A stretch of 7,637 bases of DNA from a virus. Taxonomy: Duplodnaviria > Heunggongvirae > Uroviricota > Caudoviricetes. The stretch's first letter is position 1. Every line of letters starts with the position of its first letter. Of the stretch, positions 3,102 to 5,039 are shown piece by piece. A program made the position numbers and the translations under genes. Under the pieces are notes generated by a model. It was not told the origin of the DNA, ran no database searches, and was given only the letters and a program-made list of their open reading frames with translations. Where the stretch lies: IMG/VR virus record IMGVR_UViG_2698536476_000004, one strand, 5' to 3'.

Positions 3102-5039
3102 GTGACTCTTAAACGGGCCTGCTCCCTGCTGACGGTGAAATCCTTCAGTGAGGATGAACGGGTGATCACCGGGATTGCGTCAACGCCTTCTCCGGATCGG
3201 GATGGTGACATCCTGGAGCCGGAGGGCGCGGAGTTTGGCAGTGCGATCCCGTTTCTCTGGCAGCATGACCATTCCCGCCCGGTGGGGCAGTGTACGGTAC
3301 GCCGGGTCAGCGAAGGGCTGGAAATCACGGCAACACTGGTGAAGCCCGTACCGGATATGCCGTCGCAACTGGCTGCCCGGCTGGATGAGGTCTGGGCGGC
3401 CATTAAGACCGGGCTGGTCAGGGGGCTGTCCGTGGGCTTCCGTCCCCATGAATACACCTTTCTGGACGGAGGCGGACTGCATTTTCTGCGCTGGGAACTG
3501 ATGGAGGTGTCTGCCGTCACCGTGCCCGCGAATGCGGAATGCACCATCCGGACCATTAAATCTTACGACCGCCCGTTTTCTGCCGCGTCCGGCAACCGGA
3601 AACCGGTGGTGAAAATCGCATCTTCTGCCGGCGCTGCGGCACAGTCAACAACCGTTTTTCATAAGGAAAAGACCATAATGAATATTGGCGAACAGATTAA
3701 AAGTTTTGAAAACAAGCGTGCAGCGCTGGCAGCCTCCCTTGAGGAGGTCATGACCAAAGCCGCAGAGGAAGGGCGCACGCTGGATGTGGAGGAGGAAGAG
3801 CATTACGACAACACCGCAGCGGAAATCCGTCAGGTGGATGCGCACCTGAAGCGCCTGCGTGAACTGGAAGCCGGTAAGGCCGCCACGGCGCAGCCGGTGA
3901 AACAGGCCGGTAACGGGAATGTGGCCGCGGTGGCTTCTGCGCCGGTGATCCGTGTGGAGCAGAAACTGGATAAGGGGATTGGCTTCGCCCGCTTTGCCAA
4001 ATCGCTGGCTGCGGCTAAAGGCGTCCGATCTGAAGCCCTGGAAGTGGCCCGTCGTCAGTATCCGGATGACAGTCGTCTGCACCATGTTCTGAAATCGGCG
4101 GTGGGGGCAGGAACCACCACGGACCCGCAGTGGGCAGGCAGCCTGTCTGAATACCAGGAATATGCGCAGGACTTTATTGATTACCTGCGTCCGCAGACCA
4201 TTATCGGGCGATTTGGTCAGGGCGGGATCCCTGCACTTCGTCAGGTGCCGTTCAATATCCGCGTGCATGCCCAGGTGTCCGGTGGTGCTGCCGGCTGGGT
4301 GGGGGAGGGTAAGGCCAGACCCCTGACGAAGTTTGATTTTGAATCCATCACCTTCAGTCATGCGAAAGTGTCGGCCATTGCGGTACTGACGGAAGAATTG
4401 ATCCGTTTTTCCAGTCCGGCTGCTGATGCACTGGTCCGTAATGCGCTGGCGGAAGCGGTGGTGGCGCGTCTGGATACAGACTTTGTGGACCCGAAAAAAG
4501 CCGCAGTGGCAGATGTCTCCCCGGCGTCCATCACCCATGATGTGAAGGGCACGGCATCAACCGGTAACCCGGATGCGGATGCAGAGGCGGCGTTTGGACA
4601 GTTTGTGGCAGCAAACCTGCAGCCCACCGGTGCGGTCTGGCTGATGTCCAGCACCAATGCCCTGGCACTGTCCATGCGTAAAAATGCGCTGGGTCAGAAG
4701 GAATACCCGGACATGACCCTGCTGGGTGGCTCCTTCCAGGGGCTGCCGGTGATTGTCTCCCAGTACGTGGGTGACCAGCTGGTGCTGGTGAATGCCCCGG
4801 ATATTTATCTGGCGGATGACGGCGGCGTGGCAGTGGATATGTCCCGTGAAGCGTCACTGGAAATGCAGTCTGAGCCGGGCGGCGACAGCACCACACCGTC
4901 GCCGGTGGAGCTGGTTTCCATGTTCCAGACCGGCAGCGTGGCCATTCGTGCGGAGCGCTGGATCAACTGGCGTCGTCGCCGTACTGCGGCGGTGGCTGTG
5001 ATCACCGGTGTGAACTACGGCAGTGCGTCCGGCGGCTGA
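3102..5039 (+). CDS. Prohead protease (HK97 family) fused in-frame to major capsid protein (HK97 fold, with delta/scaffold domain)
   Basis: 645-aa ORF from GTG 3102, with AGGAGG 5 nt upstream. The N-terminal third or so (GIASTPSPDRDGDILEPEGA ... PFLWQHDHSRPVG) resembles HK97-type prohead proteases. From residue 193 (MNIGEQIKSFENKRAALAASLEEV..., coiled-coil-like delta domain) to the end it resembles HK97-family capsid proteins. No stop codon separates the two parts. Confidence 0.85.
   Translation: MTLKRACSLLTVKSFSEDERVITGIASTPSPDRDGDILEPEGAEFGSAIPFLWQHDHSRPVGQCTVRRVSEGLEITATLVKPVPDMPSQLAARLDEVWAAIKTGLVRGLSVGFRPHEYTFLDGGGLHFLRWELMEVSAVTVPANAECTIRTIKSYDRPFSAASGNRKPVVKIASSAGAAAQSTTVFHKEKTIMNIGEQIKSFENKRAALAASLEEVMTKAAEEGRTLDVEEEEHYDNTAAEIRQVDAHLKRLRELEAGKAATAQPVKQAGNGNVAAVASAPVIRVEQKLDKGIGFARFAKSLAAAKGVRSEALEVARRQYPDDSRLHHVLKSAVGAGTTTDPQWAGSLSEYQEYAQDFIDYLRPQTIIGRFGQGGIPALRQVPFNIRVHAQVSGGAAGWVGEGKARPLTKFDFESITFSHAKVSAIAVLTEELIRFSSPAADALVRNALAEAVVARLDTDFVDPKKAAVADVSPASITHDVKGTASTGNPDADAEAAFGQFVAANLQPTGAVWLMSSTNALALSMRKNALGQKEYPDMTLLGGSFQGLPVIVSQYVGDQLVLVNAPDIYLADDGGVAVDMSREASLEMQSEPGGDSTTPSPVELVSMFQTGSVAIRAERWINWRRRRTAAVAVITGVNYGSASGG

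Follow-up and report, generated by a model that had tools for sequence, protein, structure and literature searches.

Comparative evidence for a putative internal capsid start within a fused prohead protease/major capsid gene of proteobacterial phages

A protease and a capsid protein in one reading frame

We analysed a stretch of Caudoviricetes DNA of 7,637 nucleotides (IMG/VR record IMGVR_UViG_2698536476_000004; the whole stretch is called the window below). The ORF listing and a frame scan gave a single plus-strand ORF at 3102..5039 that starts with GTG, ends at an in-frame TGA (5037) and encodes 645 aa (69.0 kDa); over the same interval the remaining two frames contain 24 and 34 stops. The gene order is terL, protease/capsid, a small ORF and portal. 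In one genome, the PGAP annotation marks the adjacent portal as carrying a frameshift; we considered a lesion in the portal and rejected it, as the supposed frameshift is a conserved two-gene layout. The original prediction had described one uninterrupted 645-codon frame in which a protease-like part is followed by a delta-domain-like segment and an HK97-fold capsid domain, with an in-frame ATG at codon 193 (position 3678, MNIGEQIK...) preceded by AAGGA about 10 nt upstream. This layout stood in all its parts: there is no stop before the end of the ORF, the spacer is 10 nt long, and the protease, delta-like and capsid regions were each recovered (Table 1), the last of them assigned to its family by profile. 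No sigma-70-like internal promoter was found in 3000-5300.

Table 1. Positions in the window of the fused gene, its predicted parts and the signals around its two starts
Feature	Position	Strand	Basis
Shine-Dalgarno AGGAGG of the full-length start GTG 3102	3091..3096	+	Sequence; duplex energy -10.3 kcal/mol; GGAGG + ATG kept in relatives
Full-length ORF: protease, linker, delta-like domain, capsid domain	3102..5039	+	ORF listing, profile matches
HK97-family (S78) prohead protease domain, aa 1-155	3102..3566	+	PF04586; H55/S110 alignment; AF2 pLDDT 60-79
Linker, aa 156-192	3567..3677	+	Predicted disordered; indels; most variable part of the protein; lowest synonymous variation of the gene
Codon-frozen block 1, GCCGCGTCCGGC, aa AASG 161-164	3582..3593	+	Low synonymous variation; function unexplained
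Codon-frozen block 2, GCCGGCGCTGCGGCA, aa 176-180	3627..3641	+	Possible 4-bp hairpin, one compensatory change; function unexplained
T5 run, candidate site of a 1-nt length difference from the split Burkholderia homologue	3655..3659	+	Inference
Out-of-frame TAA where the protease of split relatives stops, within conserved TAAGGA	3662..3664	+	Sequence comparison
Internal Shine-Dalgarno AAGGA, 10-nt spacer to ATG 3678	3663..3667	+	Sequence, conservation
Nested in-frame ORF from ATG 3678: delta-like + capsid domain, 453 aa, 48.2 kDa, predicted product	3678..5039	+	Comparison
Delta-like scaffolding region, aa 193-290	3678..3971	+	Predicted long helices 195-222 and 229-261; TIGR01554 match from aa 204
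HK97-family capsid domain (Pfam Phage_capsid), aa 386-635	4257..5006	+	53.5 bits; TIGR01554 79.4 bits

The N-terminal part matched Peptidase_S78 (Pfam PF04586) at aa 48-152 with 34.7 bits (cut-off 21) and the narrower equivalog model TIGR01543 with 46.4 bits, under its cut-off of 59. By these profiles the protease part is a member of the S78 family and not an equivalog of HK97 gp4. Its predicted catalytic residues H55 and S110 align with H65 and S114 of HK97 gp4 (alignment A3), which we take to be the catalytic residues of that protease, and H55, S110 and E135 were invariant in 18 fused homologues (alignment A1). The gene does not encode a free-standing protease with a C-terminal capsid-targeting tail, as no stop lies between the protease and capsid parts; where the tail would be, there is a linker that is continuous with the delta-like domain.

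In the C-terminal part, Phage_capsid (PF05065) matched aa 386-635 (cut-off 24.2) and TIGR01554, the HK97 major capsid model, matched aa 204-584 from profile position 3 onwards (cut-off 27.5; scores in Table 1). A sequence search of the PDB found no close structure and a weak match to capsid protein 9d9w (E = 0.004). The capsid parts had no BLASTP-level similarity to HK97 gp5 (E = 0.31), which left no such alignment for placing gp5 K169, N356 and E363 with regard to Lys-Asn isopeptide cross-linking. An AlphaFold2 model built from an 18-sequence alignment was poor overall (mean pLDDT 45.8; about 22-50 in the capsid part) and was used for the domain layout only; its two long helices, which begin at M193, reached a locally moderate confidence (pLDDT 71-76). 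Predicted helices from M193 onward are as expected of a delta-like domain and support that assignment. The whole fusion is modelled by PHROG 617 (E = 4.5e-261). The NCBIfam model NF045541 (prohead protease/major capsid protein fusion, scaf_prot_MCP2) scored 54 bits against a cut-off of 525, with the match limited to aa 48-287; the NF045541 fusions and the window gene have a common architecture and belong to separate lineages.

A survey of homologues found the same fusion across E. coli, in cultured Stx phages and in many other proteobacteria. An identical or near-identical fused gene (at least 80% query coverage) was present in 1248 of 5426 complete E. coli genomes, one 90%-identity cluster of 645-aa sequences had 9916 members, and the cultured Stx phages carrying the gene included 2851, BP-4795, YYZ-2008 and 1717. 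Mean column identity across genera was 87% and the catalytic residues were intact; the alignments give a clear signal of purifying selection on the protein. The window matches long-tailed prophages of the Stx1a/Stx2c type. Assignment to the short-tailed Sp5/933W type of Stx phage was rejected, since the Sp5 capsid protein is P22/N4-like according to the Sp5 morphogenesis paper and is unrelated. Annotations of the fusion go back to the mid-2000s (public phage records read 'major head protein/prohead protease'), and it is hence not new; our contribution is comparative support for ATG 3678 as a putative internal start.

Conservation at the putative internal start

The suggestion that ATG 3678 could serve as a second start is strongly supported by its orthology with the capsid start of split relatives and by conservation at the nucleotide level. 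Taken alone, the internal Shine-Dalgarno (SD) of the window is moderate (-6.2 kcal/mol, in the top 11% of ORF positions) and weaker than the AGGAGG of the upstream start, where most relatives combine GGAGG with ATG. An equally good SD precedes 6 of the 50 other in-frame start codons in the ORF. A single AAGGA with an ATG is within chance, and SD strength was significant in no single locus; the significance comes from the comparative data.

Two phages with separate protease and capsid genes were informative. Burkholderia phage vB_SBP39 (PV072743) has a syntenic module in which Met1 of the capsid protein (MTIAEKIK) aligns exactly with M193 of the window, and both DNAs read TAAGGA-N10-ATG. The junction of Ralstonia phage YO182_2 (ON170310) is the same; it contains one in-frame TAA, then AAGGA and then TTG. 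Both split orthologues resemble the window in synteny, in an identity of 38-40% across both parts and in a junction that consists of TAAGGA, about 10 nt and a start codon, with the capsid start aligned to M193. They differ in that their protease terminates at the TAA, whereas in the window this TAA is out of frame and translation continues; the two genes lie in different frames in the Burkholderia phage and in the same frame, separated by the single stop, in the Ralstonia phage. ATG 3678 is orthologous to the start of the separate capsid genes. From the PVVK codons to the TAA we counted 46 nt in the window and 45 nt in locus L002, and the T5 run is a candidate site of the 1-nt difference that would have joined the protease frame to the capsid frame. 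Fused and split states have been interconverted more than once; the split junctions, the same-frame junction with a stop and the fused junctions show how easily two genes and one gene are exchanged while the ribosome-binding site persists.

The start signals also persist among fused genes. In at least 25 fused loci from Enterobacterales, alpha- and betaproteobacteria, ATG, GTG or TTG was found at the position of the internal start or at most one codon away, and AGGA, GGAGG or GAGG lay 6-10 nt before the internal start in fused loci at 32-77% identity; Pseudomonas phage IME307 has CAGGAGGG-N7-ATG (-10.8 kcal/mol). Among 66 fused representatives, one from each of different 50%-identity clusters, Met occupied the aligned position in 53 and lay at most four residues away in 59. 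A dipeptide that encodes an SD ([KQER][GE]) stood at -6..-3 in 70% of these representatives versus a background of 9% (p about 3e-32, a value that overstates the independence of the loci, which are phylogenetically related).

At the codon level, the junction glycine was GGA in 16 of 16 enterobacterial species. GGA accounts for 10.7% of the glycine codons in these genes and never exceeds 21% in the 36 remaining conserved glycine columns, and fourfold sites are near saturation (median identity 0.39). The 17 synonymous windows with the lowest entropy in the entire gene all fell at residues 149-197 (minimum 0.20, gene mean 0.73), despite this region being the most variable segment of the protein. 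The interval -30..+15 around the internal start ranked near the bottom of each gene for structure (median percentile 1.2% in 23 loci) and is A-rich (0.43-0.67 versus 0.20-0.30); low structure at the internal site was not found in the distant loci L024, L025 and L029, and a flexible linker rich in Lys, Asn and Thr would by itself be A-rich and unstructured for reasons of protein composition. At the junction RNAalifold predicted nothing beyond two tiny hairpins, each supported by one compensatory change, and the single-sequence fold had z = -0.9. The two parts of the ORF also differed in optimal-codon frequency: the protease part had 0.49, similar to terL (0.51) and portal (0.49), and the capsid part 0.59, with the capsid part higher in 17 of 19 loci. 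We treat codon adaptation as soft evidence; its change point fell near residue 140, not 193. The comparative data show purifying selection acting at the nucleotide level on the internal site, with a conservation beyond what protein function can account for.

Two probable products from one frame, and the alternatives

We consider it probable that this one frame gives two products, a protease-capsid fusion and a nested delta-capsid protein from ATG 3678. Initiation at GTG 3102 would yield the 69-kDa polyprotein composed of the S78 protease, a flexible linker, the delta (scaffolding) domain and the HK97-fold capsid domain, and initiation at the retained capsid ribosome-binding site would yield the 48-kDa delta-capsid protein. 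The two products would presumably co-assemble via their identical capsid parts, so that each full-length subunit would bring one protease into the prohead interior, the covalent link replacing the non-covalent C-terminal targeting tail of free HK97-type proteases. The protease would then be expected to cut away the delta domains, the linker and itself. We infer that the short product is made and is in excess, the indirect evidence for which is the higher codon adaptation of the capsid part with its imprecise change point; the relative strength of the two initiation sites would set the ratio of protease to capsid. Because the upstream SD is stronger, and most relatives have GGAGG with ATG there, the full-length protein may nonetheless be abundant, and ribosomes reading through could occlude the internal site. 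In relatives with a free protease, capsid subunits far outnumber the packaged proteases: HK97 has about 60 proteases for 415 subunits, and a D3 prohead contains about 90 (PMC12749128). Our literature search turned up no proteomics, N-terminal sequencing or ribosome profiling of any phage with the fused gene, no description of the virion proteins of phages 2851, BP-4795 and YYZ-2008, and no description of an internal start in a protease-capsid fusion.

A doubtful alternative is that only the full-length polyprotein is made, so that every capsid subunit carries its own protease (1:1), which cuts itself off. The internal ATG and the SD-like sequence would then be a relic of the two-gene state or would reflect a constraint on the protein, such as a cleavage site or the composition of the linker. 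The stronger SD of the upstream start fits this reading, and a prohead interior probably has room for about 415 extra domains of 21 kDa (roughly estimated from how much scaffold other phages hold). As fused and split states have been interconverted more than once, some fusions could also be young; a relic is nevertheless expected to decay, and the start codon and SD are still present in fused genes with as little as about 32% identity and across 66 clusters of less than 50% identity to each other. The K-E/K-G motif could belong to a recognition site of the protease, but a constraint on the protein explains neither the invariant GGA, where any glycine codon would serve, nor the fact that the lowest synonymous variation of the gene lies upstream of the internal start. 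The replacement of Met by GTG and TTG, both of them start codons, and the different codon adaptation of the two halves of a single ORF also argue against this alternative.

It is highly improbable that the long frame is mostly a by-product, with a programmed -1 slip on the T5 run leading to a stop at TAA 3662 and a free protease of ~187 aa, and with the capsid protein made by coupled re-initiation at ATG 3678. The TAA does lie in the -1 frame two codons past the T5 run, and by our reading of the sequences about ten enterobacterial loci have a TAA in that frame directly before the SD. However, the window lacks an in-phase canonical heptamer (X XXY YYZ), the relatives do not have the T-run, and a search for a downstream stimulatory structure found none. 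Not every locus has the out-of-frame TAA (it is missing from L005 and L012 and lies in a different frame in L008), and in A-rich sequence a TAA arises by chance. Finally, the population and cross-genus data already refute the idea that the frame looks uninterrupted through an assembly or sequencing mistake that conceals a stop, or results from a pseudogene lesion in a defective prophage, as the many defective lambdoid prophages of EHEC genomes and the PGAP flag on the adjoining portal might suggest. The same fused frame is carried by 1248 complete genomes, by Stx phages that have been cultured and form plaques, and by other genera; purifying selection on the protein is clear and the catalytic residues are intact; and the portal 'frameshift' is itself a conserved two-gene layout.

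Relation to known protease and capsid systems

A standing question in capsid assembly is how phages load the right, small number of proteases into each prohead. In HK97 the protease is targeted by its free C-terminal tail. The HK97 protease and capsid protein had been described in the original prediction as products of separate genes, and we confirmed that gp4 and gp5 are separate. The window gene resembles them in the protease family, with the His and Ser aligned, and, by profile TIGR01554, in the capsid family; in both systems an N-terminal helical domain of the capsid protein supplies the scaffold function, and the capsid coding sequence directly follows that of the protease. The SD of HK97 gp5 even lies inside the end of gp4. 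In contrast to the window, the two HK97 genes are split by a stop (TAA, 2 nt, ATG), their order is portal-protease-capsid, and the C-terminus of the protease is free, whereas here it is covalently joined to the delta domain.

The other established solution is the nested protease-scaffold gene, as in lambda and the herpesviruses. In lambda C/Nu3, a long ORF with an N-terminal protease contains a second, in-frame start from which an assembly protein with the same 3' end is made, and Mu I/Z and the P2 gpO-type protease-scaffold fusions are built likewise; the two initiation sites of such pairs set the ratio of the catalytic to the structural product. The window gene likewise joins a maturation protease at the N-terminal end of one long ORF to an assembly protein at the C-terminal end, and its internal in-frame initiation signals are conserved beyond the need of the protein. 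The nested product of lambda is a separate scaffolding protein, the capsid protein E comes from another gene, and the C protease belongs to a different, ClpP/S49-like family; here, the predicted nested product is the capsid protein itself with a built-in scaffold. In herpesvirus UL26/UL26.5 the protease is N-terminal to the assembly protein, a shorter co-terminal product is in excess, and the fused protease enters the procapsid and cuts itself out (PMC13595911). This nested arrangement is kept even in a mollusc herpesvirus (PMC11565193). The herpesvirus pair differs from the window in that its short product is translated from a dedicated transcript instead of from an internal ribosome-binding site, and in that this product is the scaffold, not the capsid protein.

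The window gene suggests a third solution, in which the protease would be carried covalently on a minority of the capsid subunits and the rest would come from the internal start. On balance we lean towards a still broader reading, that internal initiation is a selectively maintained, family-wide dosage device, in which a nested capsid gene in a large clade of proteobacterial HK97-like phages and prophages would use two ribosome-binding sites to set the number of proteases per prohead, and the two codon-frozen blocks (3582-3593 and 3627-3641) would be added RNA elements that tune the internal site. The [K/Q/E]-[G/E] dipeptide would then be a 'shadow' that the SD leaves in the protein linker. 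If so, bacterial viruses would have in this gene a counterpart of UL26/UL26.5 whose nested product is the capsid protein, the ratio of protease to capsid would be a simple, mutable property of the sequence that can be tested in well-studied and medically relevant Stx phages, and annotation pipelines that call one 645-aa 'major capsid protein' would miss a second product.

A prohead protease N-terminal to an HK97-fold capsid protein is unusual but recurrent, being found in the 'major capsid and protease fusion protein' of actinobacteriophage clusters AM, AU, AN and EE and in thaumarchaeal proviruses (PMC5513430, PMC6563490). The papers that we examined on these fusions do not mention an internal start. 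Like the NF045541 fusions, they share the architecture of the window gene and differ from it in sequence lineage.

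Anatomy and occurrence of the fused frame

As had been predicted, the reading frame at 3102-5039 runs uninterrupted for 645 codons. It opens with GTG, and the other two frames over this stretch contain 24 and 34 stops. The predicted order of a protease-like N-terminus, a delta-like segment and an HK97-family capsid domain was also recovered, by Pfam (Peptidase_S78, aa 48-152, and Phage_capsid), by TIGR01554 (HK97 major capsid), which covers aa 204-584 starting at profile position 3, and by predicted helices. BLASTP detected no significant similarity of the capsid domain to HK97 gp5 (E = 0.31). 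Codon 193 of the frame is the ATG at 3678 (MNIGEQIK), and AAGGA (3663-3667) precedes it at 10 nt, in agreement with the positions read earlier. By calculation the full-length product would have a mass of 69.0 kDa, and a product starting at M193 one of 48.2 kDa.

Features of the head module and of the fused gene (nucleotide positions unless marked aa)
Feature	Position	Strand	Remarks
HNH endonuclease	161-526	+	phage head and packaging module
Small terminase	817-1380	+	phage head and packaging module
Large terminase	1377-3038	+	phage head and packaging module
Fused protease-capsid ORF	3102-5039	+	phage head and packaging module
Protease domain	aa 1-155	+	H55, S110 aligned with HK97 gp4 H65, S114; both invariant in family
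Linker	aa 156-192	+	most variable protein segment, indels; predicted disordered, pLDDT 23-32
Codon-frozen block 1	3582-3593	+	GCCGCGTCCGGC
Codon-frozen block 2	3627-3641	+	GCCGGCGCTGCGGCA
Delta-like domain	from M193	+	predicted long helices 195-222 and 229-261, pLDDT 71-76
Capsid domain	aa 386-635 (Pfam)	+	seen by profile only
73-aa ORF	5084-5305	+	PHROG 829, no Pfam match; between capsid gene and portal
Portal	5251-6615	+	phage head and packaging module
Repeat-containing ORF	from 6612	+	phage head and packaging module

The window DNA is identical to prophages of EHEC genomes. Of 5426 complete E. coli genomes, 1255 matched the region, with as many as 7 copies in one genome; it was also matched in long-tailed Stx1a-, Stx2a- and Stx2c-converting phages, among them the cultured phages 2851, BP-4795, YYZ-2008, 1717 and JLK-2012; the short-tailed Sp5/933W type was ruled out, its capsid protein being P22/N4-like (PMC5155283). 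A survey of homologs, which the original prediction had proposed, found the same fusion in other Enterobacterales (644-648 aa, 73-77% identity, in Salmonella including phage FSL SP-016, Enterobacter, Klebsiella, Serratia, Pantoea, Kosakonia and others) and, at 32-57% identity, in Proteus, alphaproteobacteria, betaproteobacteria and Pseudomonas phage IME307. Because the fused gene recurs in many genomes, cultured phages and public annotations, a pseudogene or a sequencing error hiding a stop between the domains, the latter raised earlier as a refuting scenario, is excluded. The fusion as such is already known: PHROG 617 models it whole, the annotation 'putative major head protein/prohead protease' has been in use since phage BP-4795, and earlier work describes this architecture for Arthrobacter phages (PMC5513430) and thaumarchaeal proviruses (PMC6563490). 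An NCBIfam model for this architecture exists, and the window protein falls outside that family (54 bits against a cut-off of 525).

Comparative signals at the proposed internal start

Every fused locus for which DNA was available has an ATG at the M193 position or at most one codon from it, except for GTG in Reyranella, TTG in one MAG and a distant fused locus (L029) in which the start is three codons downstream. AGGA, GGAGG or GAGG stands 6-10 nt upstream of this start, and the linker around it is scrambled. Among 19 enterobacterial species the junction glycine was GGA in 16 of 16 cases, and the remaining three species carry AAG-GAA or GAG-GTA, which also spell a Shine-Dalgarno (SD) sequence. 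Of all Gly codons in these genes 10.7% are GGA, and its share does not pass 21% in any of the 36 further conserved Gly columns; fourfold sites are nearly saturated (median identity 0.39). Normalised codon entropy has a gene-wide mean of 0.73 and falls to 0.20 at its lowest, and all 17 lowest-entropy 8-column windows lie at residues 149-197. The region from -30 to +15 of the internal start is among the least structured, at a median folding-energy percentile of 1.2% in 23 loci (4.2% in the window), and the A fraction around it is 0.43-0.67, against 0.20-0.30 for the gene.

We also searched aa 1-192 against 1.84 billion cluster representatives. Fused proteins of 560-720 aa accounted for 66 of the best 150 of 8891 matches; Met occupies the aligned position in 53 of these 66 and lies within four residues in 59, and an SD-encoding dipeptide ([KQER][GE] at -6 to -3) is present in 46, compared with 9.4% at background positions and 8.7% ahead of other Met residues. 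Within the one ORF, optimal-codon frequency is 0.59 for the capsid part against 0.49 for the protease part (terL 0.51, portal 0.49), and 17 of 19 loci show the higher value in the capsid part; this contrast is soft support, since the rise begins near residue 140, not 193, and the set of optimal codons was an assumed one.

Within the otherwise variable linker, two blocks are nucleotide-frozen across 17 enterobacterial species and persist in Proteus and Phlomobacter despite differing flanks. RNAalifold gave each a tiny hairpin with one compensatory change, too little to call, and tiny hairpins are what the blocks may be; a search of both for promoter-like sequence found none.

Split relatives and the two-product interpretation

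Burkholderia phage vB_SBP39 has the window's gene order but encodes protease and capsid separately, and in a residue-for-residue alignment Met1 of its capsid protein falls on M193. This alignment, the start and SD kept in fused relatives, the GGA of the junction glycine and the entropy minimum together favour the possible second start at ATG 3678 of the original prediction. The junction reads ...CAATAAGGAttccttacgcATG in vB_SBP39 and ...CATAAGGAaaagaccataATG in the window, with TAAGGA-N10-ATG common to both; the window TAA (3662-3664) is out of frame. From the shared PVVK codons to the TAA there are 46 nt in the window and 45 nt in vB_SBP39, so the fusion is accounted for by a change of 1 nt in length, for which the T5 run at 3655-3659 is a possible site. 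A third state is represented by Ralstonia phage YO182_2 (2631-2645), in which both genes share a frame and one stop parts them (ACA TAA GGA CAC GCA TTG). Its TAA lies four codons before the TTG start, so that a single substitution would give the fused state, and the site would also suit a test of stop-codon readthrough. The split arrangement occurs in Snodgrassella prophages too. On the capsid-domain tree, split forms arise at three distinct points among the fused ones; thus the two states have interconverted more than once.

Judged from sequence comparison, protein function by itself does not account for the junction signals, which have the look of a working translation-initiation region. Most likely, and in our view probably, one frame gives two products: full-length protease-delta-capsid, and delta-capsid from ATG 3678. 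Both would co-assemble, so that covalently attached protease would be carried into the prohead in sub-stoichiometric amounts. Lambda C/Nu3 and herpesvirus UL26/UL26.5 are functional counterparts of such a gene; unlike in those systems, the predicted nested product here is the capsid protein itself. Free proteases number ~60 per prohead in HK97 and ~90 in D3 (PMC12749128).

The main alternative, that the polyprotein is the only product and the internal signals are relics or protein constraints, draws on the upstream start, which has the stronger SD (AGGAGG) and is ATG in most relatives; set against the junction signals, we regard it as unlikely. Slippage by -1 on the T5 run, ending at the out-of-frame TAA, can be imagined but has little support, and is highly improbable. 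The two-product gene would be a neat mechanism, open to testing, in phages of medical importance, and no new category of system. In the available literature, several key reviews excepted, we found no comparison that argues for a conserved capsid start nested in a fused gene.

Flanking sequences and neighbouring genes

Upstream of the fused gene, a terminator-like hairpin and T-run (3063-3089) lie between the terL stop and the SD; T-run and SD (ttttttcgtttcaggagg) are kept in all enterobacterial relatives, and putative HK97 terminators are annotated at comparable intergenic positions. The full-length start is GTG in the window, against ATG in most relatives, and an ATG at 3100 overlaps this GTG (3102); with the TGA directly behind it, that ATG makes a two-codon mini-ORF (ATGTGA, 3100-3105) in another frame.

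The window order (HNH, terS, terL, protease/capsid, small ORF, portal) differs from that of HK97 (terS, terL, portal, protease, capsid) in having the portal 3' of the capsid gene, and is common to Burkholderia and Pseudomonas relatives. The 73-aa ORF overlaps the portal start, and phages vB_SBP39 and IME307 have a small ORF at its position. The last codons of the portal ORF are ...CGA AAA TGA, and the ATG of the following ORF overlaps them (ATGA) in the -1 frame right after an A4 run. PGAP labelled the portal a 'frameshifted' pseudogene in one genome, and PHROG 2271 models a single 859-aa protein. As all enterobacterial relatives keep the overlapping two-gene layout, it seems to reflect ordinary translational coupling and not a lesion.

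The post-portal ORF (6612-7637 region), annotated 'portal protein' in some records, holds three tandem copies of a 143/162-nt unit with 85-95% identity (6905-7347); the repeats they encode are of the type IPVPRDGRDYDPxVLxQAV. In the window this ORF ends at 7115 (167 aa), but its homologue in phage LC567835 is a CDS of 1224 nt, which suggests variation in repeat number or frame.
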